From sequence record NZ_CP031419.1: a DNA stretch of 64,000 bases. One strand, 5' to 3'. A program made the translations under genes and the position numbers. The notes beneath the pieces were generated by a model that made no database searches, was not told the origin of the DNA, and saw only the letters and a list, made by a program, of their open reading frames with translations. Positions within the stretch are counted from its first letter, which is position 1; every line of letters begins with the position of its first letter. Source of the DNA: a plasmid. Positions 46,368 through 64,000 of the stretch are shown here, in pieces.

Positions 46368-46405
46368 GCATACGGTGCGGCGGCCTGCGCGGCCGCACCG
46401 TATGC
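46368..46405. other. 14-bp perfect inverted repeat GCATACGGTGCGGC-N10-GCCGCACCGTATGC just after giant gene (terminator or element-end structure)
   Basis: read directly; no U-tract. Confidence 0.35.
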
Positions 46406-46463
46406 CACGTTGTTGCTGGTGGGAGTGGGAAATGTGGTTGCGGGGTGTGTGAGGATTGTCGGT

Positions 46464-47330: not shown

Positions 47331-47344
47331 CCCACGCACCCGTG

Positions 47345-47608: not shown

Positions 47609-47617
47609 GGCGCAAAC

Positions 47618-48976: not shown

Positions 48977-48995
48977 CGGCGTGGTCCTCTCGTCG

Positions 48996-49745
48996 CTATG
49001 GGGTGATCGGCTCGTCGACGGTGGTCGACGCGGCGAACAGGGCCTCGATCTGGGCGGGGTGCAGGTAGCGGGTGATCAGTGGATCGGTCCGGAACCGGGC
49101 GGCCGGGACGCCGAGGAACCGGTGCTCGAGGTACATCAACCGCCGAAACACCAGCCGGTAGATGTGTGCGGGGACGCCGTGGCAGGAGACGGTCAGCAGC
49201 TGCCCGGCGTGGTGGTGGCGGCGGAGTTCGAGGGTGCTGATCAGCCGGTTGGTGTCGAGCAGCCGCAACTGCCCGGCGACGTCGACGACGAGGTTGTCCA
49301 TCGGCGGATCGATGAAGTCCGGGATCAGCGACGCTTCGGCATCGAGGGCGGGCACCGGCGCGGTGTCGGCCAGCAGCCCGCGCACCACGCCGGTGAACAC
49401 GGCGAGCTGGTCGAGGGTTTGCCGCGGGAGCCGGTGGCGCGCGGCGATGCGCAGCGACCAGGCGGGCGCCACCGGCACGAAGTCCTTGACCACCACCGCC
49501 TCGCACAACCGCGCGGACGGGGCGGGCAGCAGCAGGCGCTCGTTCGGGATCAGGCCGGGCAGGACCGGATCGAAGATCGCCCGCAGGTATCGGTACTCGC
49601 GGCGCACCTTGGCCACGGTGAGTTCGGGGGCGTCGGGCCGGAACACCTGCATCACCACCGGGCTGCCGGGCCGGTGGTAGACCGTGGAATGGTTGCCCTG
49701 CCCGATCGCCCGATGCCGCCGGGCCGTCCCGATCACCGCGGTCAT
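48996..49745 (-). CDS. kinase-like protein (glycine-rich loop IGQGNHSTVY, VAKV motif)
   Basis: real part of track ORF 48996..50285 starts at ATG 49745 (MTAVIG…), overlapping GT stop by 4 nt. Confidence 0.5.
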   Translation of the reverse strand: MTAVIGTARRHRAIGQGNHSTVYHRPGSPVVMQVFRPDAPELTVAKVRREYRYLRAIFDPVLPGLIPNERLLLPAPSARLCEAVVVKDFVPVAPAWSLRIAARHRLPRQTLDQLAVFTGVVRGLLADTAPVPALDAEASLIPDFIDPPMDNLVVDVAGQLRLLDTNRLISTLELRRHHHAGQLLTVSCHGVPAHIYRLVFRRLMYLEHRFLGVPAARFRTDPLITRYLHPAQIEALFAASTTVDEPITP

Positions 49746-51076
49746 GCCCGCACCGCCTCGTGGGAGCCGATGACCTGGGCGTAGCCGGTGGCCATCTGCT
49801 CCACCCCGAACCGGGTGGCACTGGCCCGCCCGTTGCGCGCCAGGCGCCGGTGCAGTGCGGTGTCGGTGAGCACGCGTGCCAGGGCGTCGGCGAGCGCGCC
49901 GGGATCGCTCGGTGGCACCAGCAGCCCGGAGCGGCCGTGGTCGATGTAGTCGCGTGGTCCGCCGTGGTCGGTGGTGATCACCGGGGTGCCGGCGAGCATC
50001 GCTTCGATGTTGGCGTAGCCGAACGCTTCCGGGCAGCGCGACGGCAGTACCGCGACCGTCGCGGCCCGGTAGCAGGCCGCGACCTCGACCGGGGAGAGCT
50101 CGTCGAGCAGGAACACCCGCCCGGCCAGGTCGCTGGCGTTGATCAGATCGGTCAGCTCCCGGGTGTAGTCCAGGGCGCGGGTGTCGTGCATGTCGTGGCC
50201 GTTGAACACCGCGAACGCCTCCCCGGCGACACCGCGGGCGGACAGGATGCGCAGGGCGGCGATCAGATCGGCGTGGCCCTTCCACGCCACCCGCCGCGCC
50301 GAGAGCAACACCATCGGCCCGTCCGGAAGCTGGTTGCGGCGCGCGAGGGCGGCGAAGGCGTTCTCGGCGGCGGCCGCGCGCATCCGGGACTCGAACTCGG
50401 CGATGTCCATGCCGTTGGGCACCGTGTGGACCCGCTCGCCGGTGATTCCGGCCTTGGCCAGGTGTTCGGCCACCGCGGTCGACACCGCGACGATCCGCAC
50501 CGAGTGCTCGGTGACCTCGAGACGGCGGCGCAGGTAGTCGAACCGCCGCTCGGCGCCGGCGAGATCGTGCACCACCCCGGTCACGTTCAGGCGGCCGACG
50601 CCGGCCGCGGCCAGCCGACCGGACTGTTCGGCTTTGAGCACCGACACGATCGGATTGATGTTCTGCGCCAGCAGATCCGGTGTATCGGCGGTGGCGATGA
50701 CGTAGGCGTACTGCCGCGCCAAACCCGCATACACCGGATTTGCCGGGTCGTCGATGGCGTCCTCGTAGAAGTGGCGCACCCGCGCGGGGTCCTTGCCGCC
50801 GTCCGCACCGCCGAGGTACTGGCCGAACCCGCTCCGAATCCCTTGGGCCAGCACCACGGTGCCGTCCGGGGTGCGCAACTGGTAGGCGCCGGGGCGGGTG
50901 GCGCCGGTCTGGGTGATCGCCCAGCGCGTCCCAGGATGCCGGGCGGCCAGCGCGGCGAGCAGATGGTGGGTGTGGGCGACCAGACCGGTGTGGCGACAGG
51001 GTTTTCGCTGTCCCGTGGCCACGACGGTGCCGTGCATGTCGTAGGTGAGGATGTGCATCGCCGACGGGAATTCCAT
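49742..51076 (-). CDS. GT4-family glycosyltransferase
   Basis: 'EAFGYANIEAMLAGTPVI' EX7E motif; GGAGGA RBS before ATG 51076. Confidence 0.8.
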   Translation of the reverse strand: MEFPSAMHILTYDMHGTVVATGQRKPCRHTGLVAHTHHLLAALAARHPGTRWAITQTGATRPGAYQLRTPDGTVVLAQGIRSGFGQYLGGADGGKDPARVRHFYEDAIDDPANPVYAGLARQYAYVIATADTPDLLAQNINPIVSVLKAEQSGRLAAAGVGRLNVTGVVHDLAGAERRFDYLRRRLEVTEHSVRIVAVSTAVAEHLAKAGITGERVHTVPNGMDIAEFESRMRAAAAENAFAALARRNQLPDGPMVLLSARRVAWKGHADLIAALRILSARGVAGEAFAVFNGHDMHDTRALDYTRELTDLINASDLAGRVFLLDELSPVEVAACYRAATVAVLPSRCPEAFGYANIEAMLAGTPVITTDHGGPRDYIDHGRSGLLVPPSDPGALADALARVLTDTALHRRLARNGRASATRFGVEQMATGYAQVIGSHEAVRA

Positions 51077-51281
51077 ACCGTCCTCCACGTTCCGAGACGA
51101 CCGGATCAACAACCCCAGCAACCGGTTTCGGTGAACCAGGTCACATCAGGACACCGCGCGTATGGCCGGTCGCGGCAGTGGTGCGCTTGGTGCGTTTCGG
51201 TGCGTTTCGGTGCCGAGAGCGCACCGCGGTCGGTACCCTCGCCGCATCGACGCCGACGATCCGGTCCAGGGGGCGAGGTGG

Positions 51282-52652
51282 GTGAACGCACAGCTGGCCA
51301 CGTTGTTGTCCGACCTGGGATGGCGGCCGGAAACCTTCGCCCGCAAGCTGAGCGAGCACGCCCAGCTGCACGGACGCCGCGAGCATGTCCACCCGAAAAC
51401 CCCCTACAAATGGCTCGCCGGTGCCCGCCCGCGCTCACCCTGGCCGGACCTGGCAGCAGCGCTGCTCACCGCCGAACTCGCCCGGCCGATCACCCCCGCA
51501 GACCTCGGGTGGAACGCCGCCCCCACCGCTCCGCTACTCCCGGCCGACTCCGGGCTGGACGGGCCATGGACAGCGGAAGGGGCCTTGCGCGCCATAGCGG
51601 CGGTCACAGAGGCTGATCCCATGCAGCGAAGGCTCTTCCTCACCCTGATGGGCACCGCGATCACCGCGCCAGCGCACCAGTGGCTACTCGCCGCCGAAGG
51701 CAGCGACCTCACCCACACCGCCGGCACGCGCATCGGGATCGGCACGGTCGAGGAGATCGACACCATGACCGCCAGCCTGCGCCGCATGGACGACCAGCTC
51801 GGCGGCGGCACCCTGCTAAAAATGGTCCGCGCCCACCTGCGCCACGTCCTGAACCTGCTGCGCCACGGCAGCTACGACGACACCACCGGACGCCGCCTGC
51901 ACGCCTCGGCCGCCGAACTCCTGCGCCTGGCCGGATGGCTGTGCTTCGACACCAGCCAGCACGCCCGCGCCCAGCGCTACTGGGTCGCCGCGCTGCGCAC
52001 CGCCCACACCGCCGGCGACCGCGCCCTCGCCGCCAACGTCCTCGGATTCATGAGCTGCCAGGCCAAGGACATCGGCCAACCCCGCGAGGCCGCGATGCTG
52101 GCCGACACCGCGATCTCGGGCTATCCCGGTGCCAGCGCACGAGTTTCAGCGATCCTGCAACTGCGCGCCGCCGAAGCCCACGCCGTCGACGGATCGCCGA
52201 CCAACACCCGCCGCGCCATCGACGCCGCCTTCACCCACCTCGATACCCCTACCGACGGAGCGCCGGACTGGAGCTACTGGCTCGACGAAACCCACGCCCA
52301 CGGCCAAGCCGGATACTGCTACCTGCGCCTCGGAGAACACAGCGCAGCCCGGCATCACCTTCGGGCCGCGCTACGCAACAGCAGCGGCAACGACTCCCGC
52401 GAAGGCGCTCTTCGCTACGCGCTGCTGGCCACCACCTACGCCCGCCAGCCCGAACCCGACATCGACCACGCCCTGCACCACGCCGAACACGCCGTGGACC
52501 TGCTCACCGCCCAGGTCACCTCGACCCGGGTGACCGGCCACCTCACCACGCTGCTCAGCGACCTCACCCCTTACCGCCACCGACCCGGCGTCCGCCAACT
52601 ATCCGACCGCGTCCGCGCACTCCAGGCAGCCACCAGCAGCAGAAGCGCCTGA
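51282..52652 (+). CDS. XRE-like HTH regulator with C-terminal TPR-like domain
   Basis: N-terminal 'LATLLSDLGWRPETFARKLSEHAQL' HTH; C-terminal helical repeats; GTG start. Confidence 0.55.
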   Translation: MNAQLATLLSDLGWRPETFARKLSEHAQLHGRREHVHPKTPYKWLAGARPRSPWPDLAAALLTAELARPITPADLGWNAAPTAPLLPADSGLDGPWTAEGALRAIAAVTEADPMQRRLFLTLMGTAITAPAHQWLLAAEGSDLTHTAGTRIGIGTVEEIDTMTASLRRMDDQLGGGTLLKMVRAHLRHVLNLLRHGSYDDTTGRRLHASAAELLRLAGWLCFDTSQHARAQRYWVAALRTAHTAGDRALAANVLGFMSCQAKDIGQPREAAMLADTAISGYPGASARVSAILQLRAAEAHAVDGSPTNTRRAIDAAFTHLDTPTDGAPDWSYWLDETHAHGQAGYCYLRLGEHSAARHHLRAALRNSSGNDSREGALRYALLATTYARQPEPDIDHALHHAEHAVDLLTAQVTSTRVTGHLTTLLSDLTPYRHRPGVRQLSDRVRALQAATSSRSA

Positions 52653-52687
52653 CACATTCGCGCGGGGGTGGGGAATCCCGGGCAGGT

Positions 52688-53026
52688 TCAGAGGTCGTGG
52701 ACGTCGTCGACGCGCGCCTCGGGGTCCACGTATACCAGGATTCCCAGGGCAGCACCCACGCGCAGGGCGAGGCTCCGAGCCTTGGCTTCAGGCAGGTCGG
52801 CGAAGCCTCGGCAGATCGCCGACAACGGCTGATCGAGAGTCGAGTGGCAGGTGATATGTCCCTCGTCGTGGAGCGCATCCCGCACCATCTGCGACCGGCG
52901 GCCCGGCCGCAGCCTCATGAGGTTTCCGGGGCGGAAGATGCAGGTACTGCACTTGTCCTCACAGACGCGAACCTCGTTGTGCGAGTACACAATAGCGGTT
53001 CGCGCATCGTCCTCCGCGGTGTCCAA
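52688..53026 (-). CDS. hypothetical Cys-containing protein
   Basis: 112-aa ORF 'CEDKCSTC…CHSTLD'. Confidence 0.4.
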   Translation of the reverse strand: MDTAEDDARTAIVYSHNEVRVCEDKCSTCIFRPGNLMRLRPGRRSQMVRDALHDEGHITCHSTLDQPLSAICRGFADLPEAKARSLALRVGAALGILVYVDPEARVDDVHDL

Positions 53027-53130
53027 ATGCCCGCATACCTCCTGTTGCGATGGCCGGTCCGGTTCCGGGAGGCCACGATGGCAATCCAGCGTGCCAGCTT
53101 CCTGGTGCGACCGGTACCGGGAGGCCGGGA

Positions 53131-54198
53131 TCAGTCGTCACAAATGCTGCCTGGTGTTCGGCCGCGTGTCGCCCGGAGACGGGAGTCGTCGTGGCGGAAG
53201 TCGGAGGGGCTGCCGGAGTTGCTGTCGGGTTCGGGGGTGTCGTAGGCGGCGGCTGCGTCGGCGTGGTGTTGTCGTAGCGCAGCGCGGAGTTCGGGGGGTT
53301 GTTCGATGATCACGTCGCTGCCGAAGCTGGCGACGAGTGGGATGAGCCATTTCCAGCGGTCGACGTAGAGGACGATGCGGGTGGTGCCGTCGGGGTCGTG
53401 GTGGACTTCGGAGTCGGGTTTGAGTCCCAGGCGCAGCATTTCCTCGCGGCTGCCGGGGCGCACGCGGATGACGACTCGGGTGGGTCCGCGGCCGAAGTCT
53501 TCGAGTGCTTGGCGCCACCAGTCCTTGAGGTTGAAGGTGGTTTCGGGGTAGACGAACTTCAGGTCGGTGGCGGTGAGCCGGTCGATGTTGTTGAGCTGGT
53601 AGCGCTGGGGTTCTGAGTGTGGTGGTGCGGCGACGAGCCACCATTCCCCACCTTTCCAGACCATGCCGTAGGGCTTGACGATGAGGTGCTGGTGGTCGTC
53701 GCTGTGGTGGACGCGGACGGTGATCTGGATGGCGGTCCCGGTGAGCAGGGCCTCGCGGAGTGTGGCGAGGTGACCGGAGCTTTCGTCGCGCCAGTACCAG
53801 TCGGTGGTGTCGAAGTAGATGCGGTGGGCGAGACGGTGCAGGAACCGGGCGCGTGAGGCGCTGACGTTGTTCCTGCCGGAGTTTGCTTCGCCGCCTGTGG
53901 GTTCGGGGTGGGCGTGTCCTTGTTCGAGGAGGCCGAGGACGTAGAGGCGCAGGGCGTCGTCGCCGTCGACAAGCAGGGAGTCCAGCGGTTGATCGGTGGT
54001 GAGCCGGAATCCGCCGCCGCGGCCGGCCACGGACTCGATCGGGATGCCGAACGCGATCAGTTCCTCGATGTCGCGGTAGATGGTGCGCGCATTGACGCCG
54101 AACCGGGCGGCCAGCGAGGTCGCGGAAACCCATGTGCGGGACCGCAACTGGTGAACGATGGCGGTGTGGCGGGCGTGGCGTGGGTTGGTCGGCGGCAT
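53131..54198 (-). CDS. HTH-WYL domain transcriptional regulator
   Basis: N-terminal HTH 'ATSLAARFGVNARTIYRDIEEL'; WYL-like 'IVKPYGMVWKGGEWWLVA'. Confidence 0.7.
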   Translation of the reverse strand: MPPTNPRHARHTAIVHQLRSRTWVSATSLAARFGVNARTIYRDIEELIAFGIPIESVAGRGGGFRLTTDQPLDSLLVDGDDALRLYVLGLLEQGHAHPEPTGGEANSGRNNVSASRARFLHRLAHRIYFDTTDWYWRDESSGHLATLREALLTGTAIQITVRVHHSDDHQHLIVKPYGMVWKGGEWWLVAAPPHSEPQRYQLNNIDRLTATDLKFVYPETTFNLKDWWRQALEDFGRGPTRVVIRVRPGSREEMLRLGLKPDSEVHHDPDGTTRIVLYVDRWKWLIPLVASFGSDVIIEQPPELRAALRQHHADAAAAYDTPEPDSNSGSPSDFRHDDSRLRATRGRTPGSICDD

Positions 54199-54224
54199 GC
54201 GCGCGAGTCTGCTCGGCGGTGTGG

Positions 54225-55322
54225 TCAGCTCGCTGCGGCGGCCTGCCGGTAGACCTCGATCAGACGGCGGCCGACCGATTCCGCGGTGTAGTTGCTCAGG
54301 TGCGCGGTGACCGCGTCGTGGTCAGCGGGTTCTGCGTCGCAGACGGCGATGATGTTCTTGGCCAGGATCTCCTCGTCGTGCGGGTCGGTGTAGCGGGCGG
54401 CCAGGCCGCCGGTGACTTCGCGGAGGACGGGCAGGTCCGAGCACAGCAGCGGTGTTCCGGCGACGAGGGCTTCCTGGGCGGGGATGCCGAAGCCCTCGAA
54501 CAGGGTGGGGAACACGAACGCGGTCGCGGCCCGGTACAGGGCGGCGAGCTCGGCGTCGCCGATGTGGCCGAGGATCGTGATCTCGGGGTCGCGCATCGGC
54601 AGGCCCCGTTCCCAGCCGCGGCGCCCGGCCAGCAGCAGCCGGGCCGGTACCTGGTCGGGGGCGGCTGCTCGGGCGAGCCGGAAGGCGCGGACGAGGCGGG
54701 GGATGTTCTTCGACGGCATGTACACGCCGACGCCGAACAGGAAGGGCTCGGACGGGGCCAGGGCCGGGTCGGCGGTGCGCAGTTGGTGCGCGAAGTCGGT
54801 GGCCACGTAGTTCGGTACGACCTCAAGGGGTTTGCCGAGATCGCCGAGGGCGCCGACGATATCGGCGCGGGCCGCGTGGGAGACGGTGATGACCGCGCGC
54901 AGGTCCTCACCGGCCAGCAGGGTGTGCAGGCGCGGGTTCTGTACGTCGCGGACTGCGCGGACCATCTGGTCGGGGAACAGGTAGCGGCCGGCGTCGTGCA
55001 GGGTGAACACCGCGGGCCGCGGCAGGGCGGCGGGCAGCGCGAACGGGTAGTGCACGAGGTCGGCGTCGAAGTGCTCGATCTGGCGGTGCAGGTGGTGTTC
55101 GCGCCGGTCCGGCACGGTGAGAACGCGGATACCCGCGCGCTGGGCACGCGGGTATCGGTCGGCATGCTCGGCGGTGAGCACGACGGCGATCTCGACCTTC
55201 TCACCGGTCGCGGCGAGGGCGTCGGTGAGCAGGTGGATGTAGCGTTCGACACCGGTCTGGATGGTGGCGCGCCAGTAGCGGGCGTCGATCGCCACGCGCA
55301 GTGCTCGGTCAGACACGGGCAC
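54225..55322 (-). CDS. GT4-family glycosyltransferase
   Basis: 'FPTLFEGFGIPAQEALVAGTPLL'; last gene of coupled operon. Confidence 0.8.
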   Translation of the reverse strand: MPVSDRALRVAIDARYWRATIQTGVERYIHLLTDALAATGEKVEIAVVLTAEHADRYPRAQRAGIRVLTVPDRREHHLHRQIEHFDADLVHYPFALPAALPRPAVFTLHDAGRYLFPDQMVRAVRDVQNPRLHTLLAGEDLRAVITVSHAARADIVGALGDLGKPLEVVPNYVATDFAHQLRTADPALAPSEPFLFGVGVYMPSKNIPRLVRAFRLARAAAPDQVPARLLLAGRRGWERGLPMRDPEITILGHIGDAELAALYRAATAFVFPTLFEGFGIPAQEALVAGTPLLCSDLPVLREVTGGLAARYTDPHDEEILAKNIIAVCDAEPADHDAVTAHLSNYTAESVGRRLIEVYRQAAAAS

Positions 55323-56262
55323 CGGATTTCACGCCGACCTGCGTGCCCAGCTGCGCTACCCAGGTCTCGGTGTCGGTGGTGAGGAAGTCGAGCACGGTGT
55401 CGCCGAGGTCGCCCCAGCGGTCGGCGATGAACGCGGTGACCGTCTCGGGGGTCGGGTTCGGGTCGTCGAGGTAGAGGCGGCCGATCACGTCGACGACGTA
55501 GGTGTCGACGTGGGCGTGCCCGCCGGTGCCGTAGGACAGGTTCACCGCGAGGTTCGCGGTGTAGGGCCCGACGCCTTTGATCTGGAGCAGGTCGGTGATG
55601 ACCTCGGCGGTGGGGCGGTGGCGCCATTCGTGCCAGCTGTAGCCCGCCTCGGCCAGCGTCGCGGCGGCGGCCGCGAGTCCTTTGGCGCGGAACCCGACCT
55701 TGCAGGCCCGCAGCTGCTCGTCGCTGGCCTGTGCCAGCTGCGCGGGGGTGGGGAAGGCGTAGATCGTGGCGTCGTCGACGGTGGTGTCGGTGGGCACGCC
55801 GAAGGCTTGGGCGAGGTTGCGCATCATCGCGTAGATGCGGGCGAAGTTGGTGCGCTGAGCGCAGATCACCCCGCACAGCGCTTCGAAGATGTCGGGGTAG
55901 AGCTTGCCGCGTCCCAGCCCGCGGTGCGCGACGGCGGCCGCGAGCACCGGGTCGTCGGCGGTGAGGGCGTGCACCTGGTCGTAGGGGTAGTCCAGTTGCA
56001 GGCAGCGGGTCAACGTTTCGGTGACCGCCGCGACGGTGGCGGTGTCGAGGTCGGGGCCGGTCAGGGTGGCGCTCAAGGTGGTCGGCGCGGTCTGACGAAT
56101 CCGGGCGGTGGTGATCGTGGCATCGCCCGGCCCGGTGCGCACGGGCCGCACCAGGTCCTCGCCGTCGCGCACCCACGGGTAGATCAGGTAGGTCTCCAGC
56201 GCGTGGGTGAAGTCGACGTGGCCGTTGACCGGCAGCTCGATCACGGTGGTCTGGTCGGTCAT
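55309..56262 (-). CDS. HhH-GPD superfamily protein (AlkA-like DNA glycosylase fold)
   Basis: 'LQIKGVGPYTANLAV…HAHVDTYV' HhH-GPD with conserved Asp; ATGA overlap with upstream gene. Confidence 0.65.
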   Translation of the reverse strand: MTDQTTVIELPVNGHVDFTHALETYLIYPWVRDGEDLVRPVRTGPGDATITTARIRQTAPTTLSATLTGPDLDTATVAAVTETLTRCLQLDYPYDQVHALTADDPVLAAAVAHRGLGRGKLYPDIFEALCGVICAQRTNFARIYAMMRNLAQAFGVPTDTTVDDATIYAFPTPAQLAQASDEQLRACKVGFRAKGLAAAAATLAEAGYSWHEWRHRPTAEVITDLLQIKGVGPYTANLAVNLSYGTGGHAHVDTYVVDVIGRLYLDDPNPTPETVTAFIADRWGDLGDTVLDFLTTDTETWVAQLGTQVGVKSGARV

Positions 56263-57197
56263 GCGATCACCAGGTCCTCGAGGTAGCGCAGCGTCGGGGT
56301 GCCGGTCAGGTCGACTTCGACGTCGAGGCCGAGCGGCAGCGGGAACTTGGTGGAGGTGTGCCCGAATTCGGCGCCGGTGACGATCGGGAAGTTCCCGCCG
56401 GCGCAGCGCAGGATCAGCTCGTCGTAGGTCTCGTCGGGGGCGTCGTCGCGGGGGCTGTCGACCGGTGCGGCCACGACCAGACCGGCGATGTGGTCGAGCA
56501 CTCCGGCCAGCCGCAGGTGGGTCAGCGCGGCATCGACCTGCACCCACGGCACGAACACCTCCTCGAGGATCAGCACCGCCCCGCGGGTGTCGGGCATCCA
56601 CGGGGTGCCGACGAGGGCGCGGATGGTGCCCAGGTGGCCACCGACGACCGGGCCGGAGAACACCCGCCCGGCCCCGCGCGGCACCCGCCAGTCGCTGCCG
56701 GAGACTGTCTGTCCCTTCACCCGGCCGGACACGATGGACCAGAACCGGTCAGCGGTCGCCGAGTTCACCGGTTCCCGGGTGAAGTCGTAGCCCGTGGGCC
56801 CGTGCACGGTGGCCAGCCCGGTCCGCGCAGTGATCGCATTGGCCACGATCACCGGGTCCGACAAGGCGGTGAACACCGTCGGGTTCTCGGCGATCACCGC
56901 GTAGTCGAGCAGGTCGAGCAGCTGCGCGGCGCCTTTGCCGCCGGTCGCCGGGACGATCAGGCCGATGCCGGGGTCGGCGAAGGCGGCCATGAGGTCGGCG
57001 GCCCGGTCGGCGGGCGGCCCGGCGAGGTAGCCCGTCGCGGCCCGCGCGTGCGCGCCGACGGTGACCGGGTGCCCACGATCAGCGAAATACGCTGTGAGCC
57101 GGTCGAGTTCGTCGCCGGGGACCGGTGAGGAGGTGGAGACGATCGCGACGCCGGTGCCGGGGGTGACGGCGGGAGGCCGGATTACGGGGCGGGTCAT
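56259..57197 (-). CDS. LD-carboxypeptidase (peptidase S66, MccF/LdcA-like)
   Basis: 313-aa real part of track ORF 56259..59222 starting 'MTRPVIRPP'; ATGA overlaps both ends. Confidence 0.6.
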   Translation of the reverse strand: MTRPVIRPPAVTPGTGVAIVSTSSPVPGDELDRLTAYFADRGHPVTVGAHARAATGYLAGPPADRAADLMAAFADPGIGLIVPATGGKGAAQLLDLLDYAVIAENPTVFTALSDPVIVANAITARTGLATVHGPTGYDFTREPVNSATADRFWSIVSGRVKGQTVSGSDWRVPRGAGRVFSGPVVGGHLGTIRALVGTPWMPDTRGAVLILEEVFVPWVQVDAALTHLRLAGVLDHIAGLVVAAPVDSPRDDAPDETYDELILRCAGGNFPIVTGAEFGHTSTKFPLPLGLDVEVDLTGTPTLRYLEDLVIA

Positions 57198-59590
57198 GGT
57201 TGTGGTGCTCCTGCTCGTGTCGTCGGGTCGATGTCGCGCACCACGCGCACGCCGACCAGATGCCCGCACTTCTCGGCGGCTTCCAGCGGGCGCACGGTCG
57301 TGCGCAGGAAGTACGTGTTGGAGGCCACGTCCCCACCCCGGTAGACCGGGTGGCCGCGGTAGGAATCCGAACACCACTGCCAGACATGGCCGGTCAGGTC
57401 GGCGAGACCGAACGGTGATGGCCCGTCGTCTCCGTCGTCGATGGTAGACACGGCCGCACCGCGCTCCAAGCACCGTGGCGGACCGGGCAACGCTGCGCCC
57501 CAAGGGAACCAGCGCCCGTCGCTGCCGCGCGCGGCGTACTCCCATTCGGCCTCGGTCGGCAGCCGGCCACCAGCCCAGCCCGCGTACCGGTCGGCCCAGT
57601 CGAACGGCACGATCACCGGCTCGGCGGGCCGCTCGGCCCGCACCGGGGTCTCGGCGAGGGTGAACCCGCCACCGGCCGCGTGGGCCGCGGCGGCCGCGTC
57701 GTCGGGGGCCAGTGCGGTCAGGAACCGGGCGAACTGGGCGCGGGTGGCCGGGGTGACGCTGAACCACACGCCGGCGATGTCCACCGGCGCCTGCCCGCGT
57801 TCCCCGATGGGCTCGATGCCGAACACCGCCCGCACCACGTCGGCTTCGTCGTCGGTGAGGCCGGGCGCGAACCGGGCGGCGGGCAACCGGATCTCGCGCG
57901 CACCGTCGACCGCGCGCCGCCGTGTCGGCAGACCGGTCGCCGGTTCGGCGGCCGGGCGGGTGGTGAGGTAGTTGGTGAGCACGGTGAGCATGTCGGCGGG
58001 GGCGATGCCGTCGCGGGTCGCGGTCGGGCCGGTGAACCAGGCCCCGCCGTCGCCGATCCCGTCGGGCCCGTGCTCGGCGGCCCACCCGATATCGGCGAAC
58101 CAGGCGGCGTAGGCGTCGTTGCGGCCGTTGGGCCGGAACACCGCGGTCAACGTGGGGATGTCGCGGCGGTGGGCGTCGCGGCGGATGAGATCGAGCATCC
58201 GCTGGTGCGTGCCCGCCCACAGCAGGCGGCAGCTGGCCAGCAGCGAGTCCAGCCGCGCCGTGCCGTCGCGGTAGTCGACCTCGGCGACGCCGACGATTTC
58301 CGGCGCCAGGGCCGTGCCGTGGTAGCGGACCTCGAACGCCAGCACCGCCCAGTCCGGGTCGGCGGCCAGCTTGGCCAGTTCGTCGGCGCTGCGCCGGGGG
58401 GAGGTCATGTTGAACTGGTTGCTGCGCTGGTGCAGCTGCGCGCACCGGTCGAGCACCGCCGGGTCGGTGGGATCGGTCAGGCACACCACTTCCGGGATCA
58501 GCTCGCCGGTGGCCTTGGCCCGATAGAACGCGGTGCGGGCGGTGTCGGAGGCGGTGACCGGCGCCGCACCGGGAGGCGGAAGCTGGGCCAGCAGGTCCGC
58601 GACGAGCAGCGGCGGCCCGGCCACCGACGGCACCCGCAGGTCCGGCCACACCGTGCGGGCCCGTTCCTGCTGCGCCGGGTCGTCGTCGACGAACACCACA
58701 CTGTCGGGGGCGATGCCGTCGAAGAAGCCGAGGATGTCGGTGATCCGGTCGGCCTTGTCGATATCCGGCTGCGCCCACAGCCCGGCCAGCCCGATATCGG
58801 CGGCGTGGGCCTGCACCGCGGCCGCGGCGGCGTCGCGGTCGTTGCGCGACAGGCCCGCCACCAGCGTGCCGTGGGAGCGGCGATCGGCCAGCACCGACCG
58901 CCACACCCGGTGCGGTGCCGCAGCCAGCATGTCGGTGCCGTCGAGACCGGTCGTGCCGTCCTCGGCGACGGTGCCGGGCCACAGGACTCCGTCGAGGTCG
59001 CTGATCACCGCTTTCGGCCCCGGCTGGGTCTGTGCGGCGATCAGCTGCCAGTGCAACCAGGCCGTATCCACCAGCCCCGCCCACAGCGCGGCCGCGCGGA
59101 TGTGTCGCCCCATCGCCCGCAGCGCCGCCGACGTCGCCGGGTAGTCCGCGCCGGCGGACAGCACATCCAGGGACGCGACCCGGTGCAGCGCGGCCACCGT
59201 CACCCCGTGGCGGGCAGCCCACTGCGACAGGGCGCGGTTGGCGTCCTCGATCACCGCATCGATCCGGCCGTCACCGGTGAAGGGCACGGTCTGCACGATC
59301 ACGGCGGGTTCGGCGGCCGCGACCTGTTCGACGGCGTCGACCAGGCCGGTGGCCGCGCCCGCGTCGCCGGTGAAGATCGCGGCGGCTTCCGGCAGGGCAG
59401 CGGTGACCAGCACGGTCGCGGTGATCTCGTCGCGGTCGGGGGCCAGGCGGGCGGTGAGCCGTCCCAGCAGCTCGCCCAGCGCGGGCAACGCCACCGGCTC
59501 GGGCAGCAGACGCAGGCACAGCCCGGCCCCGGGGTCGCCGAACCCGGACTCGAGGCTGGTGAGCCAGTGCAGGTAGTTGGTCTTGGTCAT
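57194..59590 (-). CDS. fusion protein: HAD/FkbH-like phosphatase domain + central domain + C-terminal FGE/SUMF1 (EgtB/PvdO-type) domain
   Basis: 'VISDLDGVLWPG…VVFVDDDP' HAD motifs I/III; C-terminal 'GRLPTEAEWEYAARG…GHVWQWCSD…YRGG'; start ATG 59590 (MTKTNYL). Confidence 0.7.
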   Translation of the reverse strand: MTKTNYLHWLTSLESGFGDPGAGLCLRLLPEPVALPALGELLGRLTARLAPDRDEITATVLVTAALPEAAAIFTGDAGAATGLVDAVEQVAAAEPAVIVQTVPFTGDGRIDAVIEDANRALSQWAARHGVTVAALHRVASLDVLSAGADYPATSAALRAMGRHIRAAALWAGLVDTAWLHWQLIAAQTQPGPKAVISDLDGVLWPGTVAEDGTTGLDGTDMLAAAPHRVWRSVLADRRSHGTLVAGLSRNDRDAAAAAVQAHAADIGLAGLWAQPDIDKADRITDILGFFDGIAPDSVVFVDDDPAQQERARTVWPDLRVPSVAGPPLLVADLLAQLPPPGAAPVTASDTARTAFYRAKATGELIPEVVCLTDPTDPAVLDRCAQLHQRSNQFNMTSPRRSADELAKLAADPDWAVLAFEVRYHGTALAPEIVGVAEVDYRDGTARLDSLLASCRLLWAGTHQRMLDLIRRDAHRRDIPTLTAVFRPNGRNDAYAAWFADIGWAAEHGPDGIGDGGAWFTGPTATRDGIAPADMLTVLTNYLTTRPAAEPATGLPTRRRAVDGAREIRLPAARFAPGLTDDEADVVRAVFGIEPIGERGQAPVDIAGVWFSVTPATRAQFARFLTALAPDDAAAAAHAAGGGFTLAETPVRAERPAEPVIVPFDWADRYAGWAGGRLPTEAEWEYAARGSDGRWFPWGAALPGPPRCLERGAAVSTIDDGDDGPSPFGLADLTGHVWQWCSDSYRGHPVYRGGDVASNTYFLRTTVRPLEAAEKCGHLVGVRVVRDIDPTTRAGAPQP

Positions 59591-60354
59591 GGGAGATCCC
59601 CCGGAATATCGGCGTCCAATCGGATGATCTGGCCGCTCACGTACTGCCACGACGGGTCGCACACCACCGCGACCGTCGTCTGCGCGACCTCGTCGATGCT
59701 CAGCGCGCGGCCCCACGGCAACCGCGCGTAGTAGTCGGCCGGGTCGGTGATGCCTTTGCGGGCCAGGATCTGCTCGGCCATGGGCGAGCAGATCAGCGAC
59801 GGCGCAACCACATTCACGCGCACCCCGTGGCCCGCCTCTTCCTTGGCCAGCGTCCACGCCAACGCCTCCAACGCCGCCTTCGACGCGCTGTAGGCGCCGT
59901 TGCCGGGCGTGCAGGTCGCCGCCGCCTGCGAGCTGAGCACCACAACCCGCGCCCGCCCCGACCGCGCGGCCGGATGCACCGCCCGCCACATCTGGTGCAG
60001 CGCACCGGCATTGACCGTGAACAGGTCGGACAATTCGGCGGGGGATGTCGCGTCCAGGCGGGCCTTGCTCGAGGCCGCGCCGGCGGCGAACACCATCACG
60101 CCCAGGTGCTGCCCGACGGCGGCCGCGAGCCCGCCGAGATCATCGCCGGACCGGGCATCGAACCGGGTCCAGGTCAGGTCCGGCGCGGCTGGGCCGGTGC
60201 CGGTGGTCGAGGTCGCCACGACGCGATGCCCCCGCTCGAGCAGAAGCTGCACCACCGCGGCGCCCACCGCGCCGCTGCCACCGATCACCAGCGCAGCACC
60301 CGCACCGTCGCGCGGTGCGTGCCCGCCCGTCTCAGACTCCAGCGCGGCGGCCAC
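59587..60354 (-). CDS. SDR-family oxidoreductase
   Basis: 'ALVIGGSGAVG' Rossmann motif; 'YSASKAA' catalytic YxxxK; GTG 60354 with GGAAGGAGG RBS. Confidence 0.75.
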   Translation of the reverse strand: MAAALESETGGHAPRDGAGAALVIGGSGAVGAAVVQLLLERGHRVVATSTTGTGPAAPDLTWTRFDARSGDDLGGLAAAVGQHLGVMVFAAGAASSKARLDATSPAELSDLFTVNAGALHQMWRAVHPAARSGRARVVVLSSQAAATCTPGNGAYSASKAALEALAWTLAKEEAGHGVRVNVVAPSLICSPMAEQILARKGITDPADYYARLPWGRALSIDEVAQTTVAVVCDPSWQYVSGQIIRLDADIPGDLP

Positions 60355-60748
60355 GGTCGCCTCCTTCCACCGGGTCGGAGTCGGGGTGGTCGGTGACGAA
60401 CATGTCCTGGAAGCGCATCTGCCGGTCCGGGATGCCGAAGAACGCGCCGATGGCACGGGCCCGCTCGGCGGCCGCCTCGTCGCCGCGCCGGACCTGGACC
60501 ACGACACCGGGAAAGATCACGATCATCAGCTCGTCGTCGAGCAGGTGCGCGTACCACCCATCTGGTGCGAGCACCGCGGCCAGCCGAACCGCGACCTCGG
60601 CGGCGCGTCCCGGCGCGACCTGCACCTCGAGCACCTCGACCGGGATGCGCCGGTCCAGCAGGTGCGGATACGAGCCGGTGAGCACCACCGGCATCGGCAG
60701 CGGCAGGCTCCGATCCGGCAAGCTCTCCCGCAACACGATCCCGCGCAT
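60332..60748 (-). CDS. small hypothetical protein (138 aa) between the B12-rSAM and SDR genes
   Basis: C-terminal portion of track ORF 60332..62263 from 'MRGIVLRESL…' is protein-like; remainder is antisense artefact. Confidence 0.45.
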   Translation of the reverse strand: MRGIVLRESLPDRSLPLPMPVVLTGSYPHLLDRRIPVEVLEVQVAPGRAAEVAVRLAAVLAPDGWYAHLLDDELMIVIFPGVVVQVRRGDEAAAERARAIGAFFGIPDRQMRFQDMFVTDHPDSDPVEGGDRGRRAGV

Positions 60749-60750
60749 GC

Positions 60751-62106
60751 TCAGCTCACCCCCGCGCCGGGTGCCTTGACCAGGCGAGTGTGCGCGCGAG
60801 CGCGGGCCACCATCTCGCTGCTGGTCCACGGCGTCTGCGAGTCGTAGTAGTCGAAGTCCGCCCACTGCGCCAGCGTCGTCGGCGCCTGGAACCCTCGTTC
60901 GAGCGCCAGGTCGAACAGCGGAACGCCCGGGAAGGGCCCGAACAGGTGCACGCGGGTCTCCGGACGCGGGTCCAACGTGCTGATCTCCTCGATCAGGCTG
61001 TAGGTCGCCTCGATCTCGGCCTCGGTCTCGTCCGGGAATCCGACGATGAACGTGTACGCGCCGAGAATCCCGTGGTTGGCGATATCGCGGGCGACATCGA
61101 GAACCTGGGCTCGGGTGACCTCCTTGCGCACCACCTCGCGCAGTACCCGGTCGTCGCCGGACTCGATACCCATCAGCAGTCGGCGGCAGCCGGAATCGGC
61201 GATCGAACCGAGCAGGTCGAGCCGCTGCTTGCGGGCGCGCAGCACGTCGTTGGGGTTGATCGAGGCCGCCCACGCCAGGTCGATGCCGCGCTCGGCCTTG
61301 AGCTGGCAGAACTCCACCGCCCGGCGCACGTTGACGAACCAGTCCGCGTCGTAGAACTTCACCCCGTTGATGCCGTAGCGATCGGCGAGGTCGGCCAGGT
61401 CGTCCAGCAGCGAATCCGCCTGCATCGCACTGTATTTGCGCTGATAGGTCAACTCGTAGCAGAACGCGCACTTGTACACGCAGCCCTGGGAGGACACGTA
61501 GTTCAAGGTGCGCGGCGCCACGGTCGGGTCGTCGCGGATGTAGTCGCCGACGGCCAGCAGGTCCCACGGGTAAGCACCCAGGTTCCCCGCCCGCGGCGGG
61601 TTGATCGGTCCCTCGATCCGGTTGCGGCCGTGCACGGCGAGCAGGCCGGGCACCGAGTCCCAGCCGGCCCGGTTGCGCAGGGCCTCGACGAACGCGGGCA
61701 TCGATGCCTGTCCCGGGCCTGCCAGCGTGACGTCGACCAGCTCGTGCTCGGCGGTCTGCTCGGCGAGCACATTGACGTGCGGGCCGCCGAACACCAGCGG
61801 CGGGCAGCCCGGACGGTTCTGCGCCACCTCGGCCATCTCCAGGGCGTGCCGGATCTGCGCGCCGCCGGTCATGATGCTGATCCCGATACACATCGCCCGG
61901 TCGGCGTGCTCGTCGAGGAAGCCCGGCCACTCGGTCTGCGGACGCTGGTTGCCGTCGAAGATCACCACCTCGACGCCGTTGTCCATCAACGGTTTGGCGA
62001 TGGTGAGCAGCGAGAACGGCATCCAGTGGTACAGGTAGTCCTTCTCGTGCTCCACCTGCGGATACACCAGGATCACCAACGGGCGATCCACCAGCAACGC
62101 GGTCAC
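60751..62106 (-). CDS. B12-binding radical SAM enzyme (class B rSAM)
   Basis: N-terminal cobalamin-binding domain; 'CVYKCAFC' CxxxCxxC; GTG start overlapping upstream gene. Confidence 0.85.
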   Translation of the reverse strand: MTALLVDRPLVILVYPQVEHEKDYLYHWMPFSLLTIAKPLMDNGVEVVIFDGNQRPQTEWPGFLDEHADRAMCIGISIMTGGAQIRHALEMAEVAQNRPGCPPLVFGGPHVNVLAEQTAEHELVDVTLAGPGQASMPAFVEALRNRAGWDSVPGLLAVHGRNRIEGPINPPRAGNLGAYPWDLLAVGDYIRDDPTVAPRTLNYVSSQGCVYKCAFCYELTYQRKYSAMQADSLLDDLADLADRYGINGVKFYDADWFVNVRRAVEFCQLKAERGIDLAWAASINPNDVLRARKQRLDLLGSIADSGCRRLLMGIESGDDRVLREVVRKEVTRAQVLDVARDIANHGILGAYTFIVGFPDETEAEIEATYSLIEEISTLDPRPETRVHLFGPFPGVPLFDLALERGFQAPTTLAQWADFDYYDSQTPWTSSEMVARARAHTRLVKAPGAGVS

Positions 62107-63188
62107 GACGACACCCCCACCACGGGCAGCATCCGAACCCCGCTGGACTGGCCGCCACCGGGGTGGAAGCTCGCCCCGGCGTAGGTCGCCAACGCATCGG
62201 CCAGCGCACGCTCCAGCCGCGCCGGATCGTGCAGGATCGGCGCGAGCGGCACCGAGATCTCATCCCGCAGCAGGCAGAACTGCAACCGGCGATCGGCGGT
62301 CAGCCGCAGCGCCATCAACGCATCATGGCACGGGAAGAACCGGCACCCCGAGCACACATCGCCGTACCAGGCCCCGGCGCGGCTGTCCTTCAGCACGACC
62401 TCGAATCCCGAGGCCAGGGTCATCACCGTCATCGGGTGGCCGAGCCCGCCCTGAGACCGGCTCTCCACCACCACCGCGCGGGCCCGCAGCCCTCCCGCCA
62501 CCTCCTCCAGCGGCACATACAGCGACTCGACCGTGGCACCGCCGCGGGTGATGGCCAGCCGCCGGGCGAAGGACTCGGCGCCGGCGTCCAGGTCGCGGAT
62601 GACATCGAGCAGCTTCAGCGTCGCCACGCCCTCGCTCTCGCACCACGCGGCCAGATCGGGCACCTCACCCGCGTTCACCCCGGCCATCACCACCGTGTTG
62701 ATCTTCACCGGCACACCGGTGGCCACGCAGGCGCGCATCGCCGACTGCACCTCGGCCAGGTCGTCGATACCGCAGATCTGGCGGTGCAGGCCCGCGTCCA
62801 AGGTGTCGATGCTCATGTTGAACTGGGTGACCCCGGCCGCGGCGAGCGCACCGGCCCGCTCACCGATTCGCGGGTGCCGCGAGATCACCTCGATCTCCGA
62901 CATCCCCGCATCCCGCAGCCCCGCCACCGCTTCCTCGAGCGGGGCCCACAGTGCCGGATCACCACCGGTCAGCTTGATCGAGGTCAGGCCACGCTCGACC
63001 AAGGGCGCGACGACGGCCAGCAAGTCGGCCACGGTCAGTTCCTCCCCCGCGGTGGTGGCCACCGCCTCCCCCGAGGGGCGGCAGAAGAAGCACGCCCGCC
63101 CGCACCGCGAATTCACCGTCACCCGGAACTGCGGCAGCCGCTCGGGGAAACCTTGACGTTCCGACATTGCTTTCATACCTGTCATCAT
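62103..63188 (-). CDS. radical SAM enzyme, MoaA-like with C-terminal auxiliary Cys cluster
   Basis: 'CGRACFFC' CX3CX2C; 'SIKLTGGDPALW'; C-terminal 'CSGCRFFPC'. Confidence 0.8.
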   Translation of the reverse strand: MMTGMKAMSERQGFPERLPQFRVTVNSRCGRACFFCRPSGEAVATTAGEELTVADLLAVVAPLVERGLTSIKLTGGDPALWAPLEEAVAGLRDAGMSEIEVISRHPRIGERAGALAAAGVTQFNMSIDTLDAGLHRQICGIDDLAEVQSAMRACVATGVPVKINTVVMAGVNAGEVPDLAAWCESEGVATLKLLDVIRDLDAGAESFARRLAITRGGATVESLYVPLEEVAGGLRARAVVVESRSQGGLGHPMTVMTLASGFEVVLKDSRAGAWYGDVCSGCRFFPCHDALMALRLTADRRLQFCLLRDEISVPLAPILHDPARLERALADALATYAGASFHPGGGQSSGVRMLPVVGVSS

Positions 63189-63222
63189 GAGCCCATCTCA
63201 AGCGAAATTGCCGACAGTACAA

Positions 63223-63268
63223 CAGAATTCGATGTCAGTGTTTCTGTGCGCGGCGCGCGAAACCCTGA
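63223..63268. promoter_or_regulatory. inverted repeat GATGTCAG-N30-CTGACATC upstream of the rSAM operon
   Basis: lower-GC leader region between divergent genes 63188 and 63317. Confidence 0.3.
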
Positions 63269-63316
63269 CATCGAGAGTGCTTCCGAACCACACCGAACCG
63301 GCTTAGGCTCGGCGGC

Positions 63317-63709
63317 ATGATCAAAGGTGTGCTCATCGCCGAAAGCCTCGTCGCGGGCGCGAAGATCGAAGCAATCCCGCTCACCCTCACCGGCGTCTAC
63401 CGGGTCGCGGTCACCGATGCGGCGGACTACCAGCCGCCGGTGTGGACGATCATGTATTTCGACGCCGACGACGCGAACGCTGACACGCTCGCCGAGCGAT
63501 TCGCCGACCAACTCGACGCCCCGGGCTGGTACGTCGACATGCACAACGACACCACCGTCTACGTCGTCTTCCCCGGCAAGGTGTTCCGGTACGCGATCGG
63601 CGACCCCGCCGGCCGCGCCGAAGCAGTCGCCTACGCCACCGGAGTGGCCGGAGTCCCCGACACCCAGCTGTGGGGCGAAGGCAACACCCCCGACCCCGCA
63701 CTCACCTGA
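63317..63709 (+). CDS. hypothetical protein
   Basis: 130-aa ORF with protein-like composition, divergent from rSAM operon. Confidence 0.5.
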   Translation: MIKGVLIAESLVAGAKIEAIPLTLTGVYRVAVTDAADYQPPVWTIMYFDADDANADTLAERFADQLDAPGWYVDMHNDTTVYVVFPGKVFRYAIGDPAGRAEAVAYATGVAGVPDTQLWGEGNTPDPALT

Positions 63710-63821
63710 CCAGCACGCCTCCGCCATACCGTTGAGCGGCGCGCCGAGCGGCGGCGCAGTAATCGGGTTGTCGCCCATTGCATTCCCTCCCAGTAGTAGT
63801 GCTGCTCAACGGTTTTGAGGC

Positions 63822-64000
63822 TCACCCCGGCCGCTGGCATCGAGTGGCCAGCCGGATGCCGAAGGCGTCCTGGTGGATGGGAATCGTGTAGACCGTGGGC
63901 ACCGTGCATCTGCCGGTCAGCAGATCCGCGACCAGGTCGTCGAGGCCGCCCGCGAGTTGCGCGGCGTGGACCTCGGCGAAGTGCACCTCGCTCCCGGTGG
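63822..64000 (-). CDS. 3' end of a gene continuing beyond window (hypothetical)
   Basis: frame reads '…TGSEVHFAEVHAAQLAGGLDDLVADLLTGRCTVPTVYTIPIHQDAFGIRLATRCQRPG*'. Confidence 0.3.
   Translation of the reverse strand, partial: TGSEVHFAEVHAAQLAGGLDDLVADLLTGRCTVPTVYTIPIHQDAFGIRLATRCQRPG

Follow-up and report, generated by a model that had tools for sequence, protein, structure and literature searches.

In the hopanoid side-chain (HpnH/HpnG/HpnJ/HpnI) and futalosine (MqnE/MqnB/MqnC) pathways, a radical S-adenosylmethionine (SAM) enzyme acts on a nucleoside, an N-glycosidase of the PNP/MTAN type and not of the HhH-GPD type removes the base, and a second, B12-type radical-SAM enzyme together with a glycosyltransferase remodels the sugar. 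The blasticidin S and mildiomycin clusters employ a MoaA-related radical-SAM enzyme (BlsE) and nucleotide-derived scaffolds, with an amino acid that is added and then removed. In blasticidin S, this transient aminoacylation (leucylation), later removed, acts as self-protection (PMC12710036), and in apramycin biosynthesis AprD4, a diol dehydratase of the radical-SAM type, works with the NADPH reductase AprD3 in C3' deoxygenation (PMC5461906). The microcin C system, which makes peptidyl-nucleotides, places an S66 peptidase that confers immunity (MccF) alongside biosynthetic genes such as MccB and a HIT hydrolase (MccH). Here we analyzed 64,000 nt of a Nocardia plasmid (NZ_CP031419.1; this whole stretch is referred to as the window), in which a minus-strand operon centered on two radical-SAM enzymes occupies 54225–63188 and is followed by a WYL-domain regulator. 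An earlier sequence-only reading had proposed that this operon directs the synthesis of a modified nucleoside or peptidyl-sugar metabolite, or a modification of the cell envelope. On balance, with evenly divided confidence, our analysis points to a WYL-controlled pathway that would turn a purine nucleoside triphosphate (NTP) into a tailored small molecule, the tailoring being specific to each variant of the cassette.

The genes, lettered A to I in order of transcription, encode a MoaA-clade radical-SAM enzyme (A), a radical-SAM enzyme with a B12-binding domain (B), a small protein (C), a short-chain dehydrogenase/reductase (SDR; D), an FkbH-like fusion protein (E), an S66 peptidase (F), an HhH-GPD glycosylase (G), a family 4 glycosyltransferase (GT4; H) and the WYL regulator (I), while J and K are flanking genes. 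Every part of the cassette belongs to a known superfamily, and its overall logic is like that of radical-SAM nucleoside pathways already described, so the cassette is not categorically new. It differs from the hopanoid and futalosine systems in having neither sequence-level membership nor genes for a lipid or chorismate substrate. The amino acid added and removed in blasticidin S and mildiomycin biosynthesis has a parallel in the ligase and S66 peptidase of the commoner cassette variant described below; however, those clusters lack a B12-domain radical-SAM enzyme, a WYL regulator and an HhH-GPD protein, BlsK of the blasticidin S pathway is a tRNA-dependent Fe-S enzyme and not a class II aminoacyl-tRNA synthetase (aaRS) core, and the BlsE model gives A 27 bits, below its cut-off of 400. 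The likeness to microcin C lies in the S66 peptidase and in the HIT genes and exporter carried by Streptomyces relatives of the cassette, but a ThiF-like MccB and a gene for a heptapeptide precursor are both missing from the cassette, its peptidase is LdcA-sized, and S66 is a core gene in the ligase-free variant as well. As with AprD4/AprD3, B is paired with a reductase (the SDR), which makes a dehydrate-then-reduce sequence plausible, although only the radical-SAM core of B (residues 146–407) aligns with AprD4 and the substrate of B is probably a nucleotide and not an aminoglycoside. The sequence-only reading had not recognized the combination as a described cluster, and this held: no NCBIfam equivalog cut-off was reached by any of the nine cassette proteins, a PADLOC scan of the nine matched no system (giving generic WYL matches and a weak pVip match only), and no open-access paper matched.

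To find relatives, two peptide patterns specific for A were searched against 185,579 species-representative genomes, which retrieved 48 loci. These lie in Actinomycetota, Cyanobacteria, Acidobacteria, Proteobacteria, Firmicutes and Planctomycetes, often on plasmids. The actinomycete hosts belong to Nocardia, Micromonospora, Frankia, Prauserella, Actinomadura, Streptomyces and Streptacidiphilus; the others include a Calothrix plasmid, Bryobacterales, Brevundimonas, metagenome-assembled genomes (MAGs) of Rhodobacteraceae and Zixibacteria, three Firmicute MAGs and two Planctomycete MAGs. A belongs to a rare family, of which 53 clusters (50% identity) were found at E <= 1e-30 among 1.84 billion representatives, and which occurs on seven plasmids in PLSDB. 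No relatives were found in phages by DNA search or in viral contigs by protein patterns.

To define the core of the cassette, co-occurrence was tabulated by tblastn and open reading frames (ORFs) were clustered all against all. In the 35 loci with at least 8 kb of sequence downstream of A, B was present in all 35, S66 and C in 33 each, WYL in 31, the SDR in 30 and HhH-GPD in 28. E occurs in only 8 loci, accompanied by GT4 (7/35) and J (6/35), while a commoner variant (25/35) encodes a ~335-aa class II aaRS catalytic core in place of E. LysRS and EpmA are the nearest relatives of this protein, which misses their cut-offs by a wide margin, and none of the 35 loci has both it and E. The window thus holds the minority, FkbH-FGE/GT4 variant of a conserved, mobile cassette (FGE, formylglycine-generating enzyme). 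The same nine-gene order as in the window was found on a metagenome contig, and a Syntrophomonadaceae (Firmicute) MAG has the order A-B-aaRS-S66-PHP-SDR-HhH-GPD. All nine genes are also intact in N. neocaledoniensis (L005), and pFRL6 of Streptomyces sp. F12 is another carrier of the cassette (WP_024127593–WP_024127599 and WP_181412035). Between the two variants A and B are 60–66% identical, whereas S66 is 36–39% and HhH-GPD ~26% identical; this divergence fits shared early steps followed by late, variant-specific ones. A fused ABC exporter is present in 14/35 loci, with MFS and ABC-2 exporters in others, and nucleotide-handling genes travel with the relatives, namely HIT, phosphotransferase, Nudix, PHP and LOG genes.

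The operon is real and translationally coupled, and it is not a chance arrangement, because dozens of unrelated genomes contain this gene set in matching order. The gene content and coupling around two radical-SAM enzymes were therefore borne out, and the neighborhood, whose conservation had been proposed as a check, is kept elsewhere, across Actinomycetota and other phyla. Genes were called from ORFs filtered by GC content at third codon positions (GC3) and by reading the junctions in this high-GC DNA; GC3 of the eight minus-strand ORFs in 54225–63188 is 0.79–0.90. A and B overlap by 4 nt (GTGA), B and C are separated by a 2-nt spacer (TGAGCATG), C and D overlap by 23 nt, the D/E, E/F and F/G junctions are ATGA each, and G and H overlap by 14 nt, or by 8 nt if H begins at 55316 as called by PGAP. 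The GTG start of D at 60354 is preceded by GGAAGGAGG and is called identically by PGAP in a plasmid that is 98% identical. Overlaps of 4 nt or less had been claimed throughout, which is right for five of the seven junctions; those of C/D and G/H are longer and still imply coupling. Nine genes had been announced but eight listed, and the WYL gene, which begins 26 nt downstream of H on the same strand, makes the ninth (Table 1). The domain assignments, which had been offered for testing against model thresholds, stood, as all Pfam assignments of the cassette proteins pass their gathering scores.

Table 1. Features of the cassette and its flanks in NZ_CP031419.1 (positions within the window)
Feature	Position	Strand	Remark
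A, MoaA-clade radical-SAM enzyme, 361 aa	62103..63188	-	first gene of operon
B, B12-binding-domain radical-SAM enzyme, 451 aa	60751..62106	-	
C, 138-aa protein, no family model	60332..60748	-	
D, classical SDR oxidoreductase, 255 aa	59587..60354	-	
E, FkbH-HAD/GNAT-like/FGE-fold fusion, 798 aa	57194..59590	-	
F, S66 serine peptidase, LdcA/MccF family, 312 aa	56259..57197	-	
G, HhH-GPD glycosylase, Ogg/AlkA type, 317 aa	55309..56262	-	
H, GT4 retaining-type glycosyltransferase, 365 aa	54225..55322	-	363 aa if start 55316
I, HTH_11-WYL-WCX regulator, 355 aa	53131..54198	-	ninth operon gene
J, 130-aa paralogue of C	63317..63709	+	divergent from A
Palindromic operator (putative)	63230..63273	.	between A and J
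K, NsdA-family TPR-like regulator, 496 aa	51162..52652	+	

Gene A encodes a true MoaA-clade enzyme. Its Pfam Radical_SAM domain scores 77 bits and its best matches in both NCBIfam and the Protein Data Bank (PDB) are MoaA, though the scores on the MoaA models stay below cut-off (TIGR02666, 121.2 vs 284; TIGR02668, 120.5 vs 325; NF001199, 115.4 vs 231) and identity with E. coli MoaA is 24%. In the alignment with E. coli MoaA, the radical-SAM CX3CX2C cysteines C29/C33/C36 match and are invariant in the family, the auxiliary-cluster cysteines C279/C282/C305 and R295 fall on the MoaA CxxC...C and LRVS motifs with RL(T/S) kept, and A also retains TGGDP, N124-S126-D128, K162-N164 and H251-P252. Most of the positions that we take to contact the triphosphate and ribose of GTP in MoaA (R22, N124, S126, D128, K162, N164 and R295) are kept; of the remaining presumed contacts, K72 and K192 show conservative changes and the equivalent of K69 is lost. 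A differs from MoaA in a family-specific 9-residue FPCHDALMA insert and a QGGLGHPM motif, and none of moaC, moaB, moaD and moaE was found near it. We read A, from these residues, as a predicted purine-NTP-directed relative of MoaA and not as a bona fide GTP 3',8-cyclase. Matches to other radical-SAM groups are weak: pVip (NF038283, 27.6 vs 180; PADLOC pVip, 34 bits, radical-SAM core only) and, in NCBIfam, the SPASM peptide maturases.

B carries a B12-binding domain (PF02310, 42.3 bits, cut-off 32.1) and a Radical_SAM domain (PF04055, 72 bits) with conserved cysteines C209/C213/C216 (CX3CX2C), and by these features it is a class-B-type radical-SAM enzyme predicted to bind B12. It stays below the cut-offs of the characterized class-B subfamilies (ApyD, PhpK, AprD4, HpnJ, BchE, BzaD etc.). 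The best NCBIfam match is ApyD, an enzyme of ribosomally synthesized and post-translationally modified peptide (RiPP) pathways, with 110 vs 750, followed by AprD4 (68 vs 500) and HpnJ (66 vs 578), while the closest solved structure is AprD4 (6fd2, 61 bits). Across actinomycete genera B is 60–70% identical. The SDR D (adh_short_C2, 106 bits) has the cofactor motif GGSGAVG and the catalytic tetrad N115, S142, Y155 and K159, conserved in its family; no NCBIfam equivalog was reached.

The signature gene of the window's variant is E, which consists of four domains: one at the N-terminus, a HAD-IIIC phosphatase, an FkbH module of GNAT-like type and a domain with the FGE fold. Residues 192–505 of E fit the FkbH domain model (TIGR01686, 88 vs a cut-off of 146.65), and D198/D200, K279, D302/D303, Q392-F393-N394 and S453-C454-R455 are invariant in 34 sequences. 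E therefore shares the HAD DxD, QFN and SCR motifs of the FkbH/OzmB glyceryl-ACP loading enzymes (ACP, acyl carrier protein), and we presume that the SCR cysteine (Cys454) is the acyl-carrying residue. It is unlike those enzymes in its extra N-terminal and C-terminal FGE-fold domains; the top structural match, BF1531 from Bacteroides, also has an extra N-terminal domain. FGE catalysis uses a cysteine pair near the C-terminus, and in the sulfoxide synthases EgtB/OvoA the iron ligands are supplied by an N-terminal DinB-type domain. The C-terminal domain of E has the FGE-sulfatase fold, but its consensus YRGGDVxxNxYFLRTTVR contains no Cys, the PDB alignments to FGEs end at residues 744–749, no DinB domain was detected, the HAD and GNAT-like domains precede the FGE fold, and the score on the EgtB-type model TIGR03440 is 50 vs 360. 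Since both the Cys pair and the DinB-type iron domain are missing, the C-S bond formation of FGE/EgtB type that had been suggested for this domain is unsupported, and we rejected it as a candidate activity. The nearest structural relatives of the fold are ToxD (toxoflavin) and CalU17 (calicheamicin), accessory proteins of small-molecule pathways; a mechanism for ToxD was not found in the literature searched. H (Glyco_transf_4, 45 bits; Glycos_transf_1, 60 bits; GT4-conflict, 36 bits) co-occurs with E only and is likewise variant-specific.

The S66 peptidase F passes for both S66 domains (PF02016, 97 bits; PF17676, 88 bits), and its triad Ser113, Glu212 and His280 is conserved in at least 90% of 40 family members. 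It is a near-universal core gene and not an add-on. The MccF-like label given to it could not be separated from an LdcA-like one: in the PDB a muramoyltetrapeptide carboxypeptidase (6uuk, 92 bits) is ahead of the MccF-like BA_5613 (90 bits) by ~2 bits, the best NCBIfam matches are murein tetrapeptide carboxypeptidases, and E. coli MccF aligns with F in two separate stretches, with the central region left out. G belongs to a distinct subfamily of HhH-GPD proteins (PF00730, 47.8 bits, cut-off 26.2; PDB matches to the 3-methyladenine glycosylase 4ejy, 68 bits, and OGG1, ~50 bits) with a signature, IKGVGPYTA...VD253, that is near-invariant in 33 homologues. The catalytic Asp253 is conserved in both variants and in a Firmicute. 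Bifunctional enzymes carry a lyase lysine (K249 in Ogg1, K120 in EndoIII); in the OGG1 alignment G has Tyr234 at that position (GVGPYTA vs GVGAKVA). Because Tyr replaces the lyase Lys while Asp253 is retained, G is predicted to be a monofunctional glycosylase.

No family model covers C, nor was a confident structural relative found. The protein is conserved and well folded, and beyond DHPD its tail is variable and predicted to be disordered; this tail is dispensable, since the Calothrix copy stops at DHPDA, and the family alignment shows no invariant Lys. In Firmicute cassettes a PHP-domain phosphoesterase stands at the position of C, and one was also seen downstream of A-B in a Frankia locus (L044, 6658–7416; L049; L007); the exchange looks like a non-orthologous replacement. 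C is possibly a metal-dependent phosphate-processing enzyme. The suggestion that the 138-aa protein might be a RiPP precursor or a RiPP recognition element (RRE) was dropped in view of the folded domain, its dispensable tail and the PHP protein in its place; no RiPP precursor or RRE was recognized, C being the only small protein, although no systematic small-ORF search was made. J is 27% identical to C, with the common motifs ESL, (W/Y)Y..H, FP, RGD and P..Q. It is transcribed divergently from A across a shared operator and is confined to the FkbH-FGE variant, where it lies upstream of A in L004–L006, L009–L011, L013 and L019. Its family consists of ~121-aa proteins with no Pfam model and 367 database matches. 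Many actinomycetes carry members singly, in unrelated surroundings, and the genomic context of these stand-alone homologues was variable and uninformative.

The regulator I scores above cut-off for WCX (49.9 bits), HTH_11 (49 bits) and WYL (36.7 bits), reaches 100 bits on the PADLOC WYL model, and shows the winged helix-turn-helix, WYL and WCX architecture of PafBC/BrxR/CapW-type regulators. Beyond the WCX domain, the family of this regulator shares a conserved motif in its C-terminal tail, DDSRLRxTxGR (residues 337–347 of I). In Streptomyces relatives the WYL gene lies within the operon, abutting or overlapping its neighbors. Between A and J we found a palindrome, CGATGTCAGTGTTT-N16-AAACCCTGACATCG, in which 13 of 14 arm positions are complementary. 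The palindrome and J, like the wider family in which the window is the minority variant, had escaped the sequence-only reading. Arms of the form GTCAG(G/T)GT and AC(A/C)CTGAC, spaced 28–29 nt from start to start, recur in both variants in ~26 loci, ~45–130 bp upstream of A, with single arms in ~6 more. They were seen in Nocardia, Micromonospora, a Pseudonocardiales MAG, Streptomyces and Streptacidiphilus, while the DNA flanking the arms is not conserved. Since no other transcription factor travels with the cassette, the WYL regulator is the probable binder, and the palindrome is probably a WYL operator. Among L003–L036, the Micromonospora loci and L010 have an additional half-site at the start of A. 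An Rfam scan of 44000–64000 for a riboswitch that might name a ligand gave nothing, and a consensus scan for promoters and terminators was uninformative in high-GC DNA.

Taken together, a pathway can be proposed in which A would bind a purine NTP and begin radical chemistry on the ribose or at C8, B would methylate or dehydrate the resulting intermediate, C (or the PHP phosphoesterase in Firmicutes) would process its phosphates, and D would reduce the resulting carbonyl, as AprD3 partners AprD4. In the window's variant, E might then transfer a glyceryl or acyl unit by means of its HAD and Cys454 module and H might add a sugar, whereas the commoner variant would attach an amino acid, by way of a tRNA-independent LysRS/EpmA-like ligase. 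F and G would act on the late, variant-specific compounds, in product maturation or producer protection, with F taking off an acyl or aminoacyl group and G taking an analogue base off DNA or a nucleotide; the transient leucylation of blasticidin S is a precedent for such add-then-remove self-protection. The WYL regulator would bind the A-J palindrome and set both transcripts.

A purine-nucleotide substrate is favored because A keeps the MoaA cysteines, RL(T/S) and most of the presumed GTP contacts and because nucleotide-handling genes accompany its relatives, and a small-molecule output is favored because ABC, MFS and ABC-2 exporters occur in cassette loci. Catalytic residues are intact in B, D, E, F and G by family alignment. 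Of the outcomes that had been put forward, a modified nucleoside-type metabolite is thus the best supported, with its MoaA-clade enzyme and with relatives that carry exporters, HIT, Nudix, LOG and PHP genes, while a cell-envelope modification gained no specific support. Several points weigh against the proposed pathway. The open-access literature, which is the literature covered, holds no description of the cassette. To our knowledge, WYL regulators and HhH-GPD proteins are unusual in classical biosynthetic clusters and more typical of DNA damage and defense. Neither the window's variant nor most loci carry exporters, the cassette contains neither an ACP nor a polyketide synthase gene, unlike known FkbH systems, and B may act by methylation as well as by dehydration. 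Finally, the C-terminal GG of MoaA is catalytically essential and conserved in all MoaA homologues (PMC9026282), whereas A ends in ...VVGVSS and its relatives have variable C-termini with no terminal GG, so MoaA-type cyclization is not assured.

A rival explanation is an inducible anti-phage or abortive-infection system, in which the WYL protein would sense damage or infection, the radical-SAM enzymes would make a toxic nucleotide analogue (viperins make ddh-nucleotides) and S66 and HhH-GPD would limit self-damage. The WYL regulator within the operon, the conserved operator upstream, the DNA glycosylase in the core, the plasmid-borne, mobile and patchy distribution across phyla, the weak match of A to pVip and the nearby dGTPase and giant methylase-helicase of the window are all consistent with it. 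We nevertheless consider it rather unlikely, as PADLOC matched no system, viral contigs held no relatives, the dGTPase and HisG neighbors are not kept with the cassette, NsdA-type antibiotic regulators are frequent neighbors, and nine enzyme genes with a B12-domain radical-SAM enzyme, ligase or glycosyltransferase tailoring and exporters look more like secondary metabolism. TGT-like enzymes exchange 7-deazaguanines into nucleic acid, and a hypermodification of DNA or RNA could be imagined along similar lines, with a modified purine that is built by the cassette and inserted or exchanged by G. The distinct, conserved HhH-GPD subfamily with intact Asp and no lyase Lys, a first enzyme predicted to be purine-directed and the DNA methylases beside the cassette on the plasmid would agree with this; but we know of no HhH-GPD enzyme that catalyzes base exchange, HhH-GPD is missing from 7/35 complete loci where S66 is nearly always there, no conserved restriction or nuclease partner was seen, and exporters and peptidase would be left with no role, which makes it very unlikely.

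Synthesis on a scaffold protein, pearlin- or RiPP-like, would have the ligase add an amino acid to C, the radical-SAM enzymes and SDR modify it, and S66 release the product. This would draw on ApyD being the best NCBIfam match of B, on the SPASM matches of A, on the carboxypeptidase activity of S66 enzymes and on the resemblance of the aaRS-like protein to EpmA, which aminoacylates a protein. Yet the tail of C is variable, predicted to be disordered and missing in Calothrix, C has no invariant Lys and is replaced by PHP in Firmicutes, the window's variant has C but no ligase, A keeps the MoaA nucleotide-contact positions, and scores on RiPP models are all far below cut-offs; we regard this as very unlikely indeed. 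Least probable of all, in our estimate, is a peptidoglycan or glycolipid modification by the LD-carboxypeptidase, GT4 and FkbH-like enzymes. The murein tetrapeptide carboxypeptidases found as best matches of F in PDB and NCBIfam point in that direction, as do the occurrence of GT4 and FkbH-like proteins in surface-polysaccharide loci and the structural match of E to BF1531, but F shows no signal-peptide-like N-terminus, no flippase or lipid-carrier gene is among the recurring gene families, GT4 and E are missing from the majority variant, and the MoaA-clade enzyme, HhH-GPD and the WYL regulator would have no evident role. Returning to the purine-NTP pathway, a bolder version of it would give MoaA-type chemistry a second metabolic fate outside molybdenum-cofactor synthesis: A would cyclize or C8-functionalize a purine NTP, HhH-GPD would cleave the N-glycosidic bond of the free nucleotide to leave a C-C-linked, C-nucleoside-like purine-sugar scaffold, D would reduce it, and the variants would decorate it with glyceryl and sugar or with an amino acid, as a WYL-induced chemical weapon or defense. 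We know of the HhH-GPD fold only from DNA repair, and this version is a long shot.

If the purine-NTP pathway is correct, it represents an unmined radical-SAM pathway family in ~50 known species, including clinical Nocardia plasmids and linear plasmids of Streptomyces, and its product could be a new nucleoside-type antibiotic or antiviral nucleotide analogue. It would include a MoaA-clade enzyme that has departed from cofactor biosynthesis, a new B12-domain radical-SAM subfamily, a distinct HhH-GPD subfamily that possibly acts on, or guards against, a small molecule, and two protein families with no model on offer for study. The two mutually exclusive tailoring variants constitute a natural experiment linking genes to structure, and the cassette would offer a clean WYL regulator-operator pair for asking what WYL domains sense.

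Among the relatives, a rearranged variant in Streptomyces sp. NPDC102381 (L056) retains SDR, FkbH-FGE, HhH-GPD, GT4 and WYL. It has two divergent radical-SAM genes beside an RmlD-like reductase, a LOG-family protein and another glycosyltransferase, an ABC-2 exporter, and a beta-lactamase-family hydrolase at the place expected for S66. On a plasmid of Streptomyces sp. NBC_00239 (L002, 17445–26777), a second, nucleoside-antibiotic-like gene set adjoins the cassette; it encodes an aaRS-related protein, GT4, WbqC, a PIG-L deacetylase, a dCTP deaminase, a deoxycytidine deaminase, TauD, a phosphodiesterase and an Erm-type rRNA methyltransferase.

Nearly identical to the window, at 98%, is the 142-kb mobilizable plasmid of Nocardia cyriacigeorgica MDA3349 (NZ_CP026745.1). 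In this clinical isolate (L001, L057), the operon is inactivated: gene B is broken by a ~40-kb insertion containing Tn3, insertion sequence elements, an integrase and chromate-resistance genes. The 3' part of B and the genes from C through WYL adjoin the Tn3 transposase, while the 5' part of B is found with A and J ~40 kb off, beside the integrase; the remaining proteins are 96–100% identical to those of the window. An annotated nucleoside hydrolase gene and a DUF4254 gene stand just upstream of J on that plasmid (L057, 2612–3688), in sequence that would lie past the right end of the window, and were not seen conserved in other loci of the FkbH-FGE variant.

Elsewhere the window carries genes for ParA and ParB, an integrase, a C5-methylase, a relaxase of MobA/VirD2 type and a methylase-helicase of 2444 aa, so that the cassette is plasmid cargo. 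The 2444-aa ORF (39014–46348, +) combines a SAM-methyltransferase domain with ResIII and Helicase_C and is a typical large methylase-helicase of plasmids and integrative and conjugative elements. As for the flanks of the operon named by the sequence-only reading, the WYL regulator and the second GT4 were confirmed and no kinase-like protein was found. The XRE/TPR regulator proved to be an NsdA-family TPR-like protein, K (NF053720, 346 bits vs a cut-off of 75), weak homologues of which lie within 10 kb of the cassette in 10/35 loci by tblastn and in 14 by clustering; K is a frequent but loosely linked neighbor. At 46470–51121, a full-length plasmid-borne hisG (174 bits, above cut-off) stands beside a co-directional trio of GT4, hypothetical and dGTPase genes, the last with 289 bits on the PADLOC dGTPase defense model. 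These four were rejected as cassette parts, since their conservation is limited to the near-identical Nocardia plasmid and does not extend to the cassette in other genomes, and they may form a separate nucleotide-related module.

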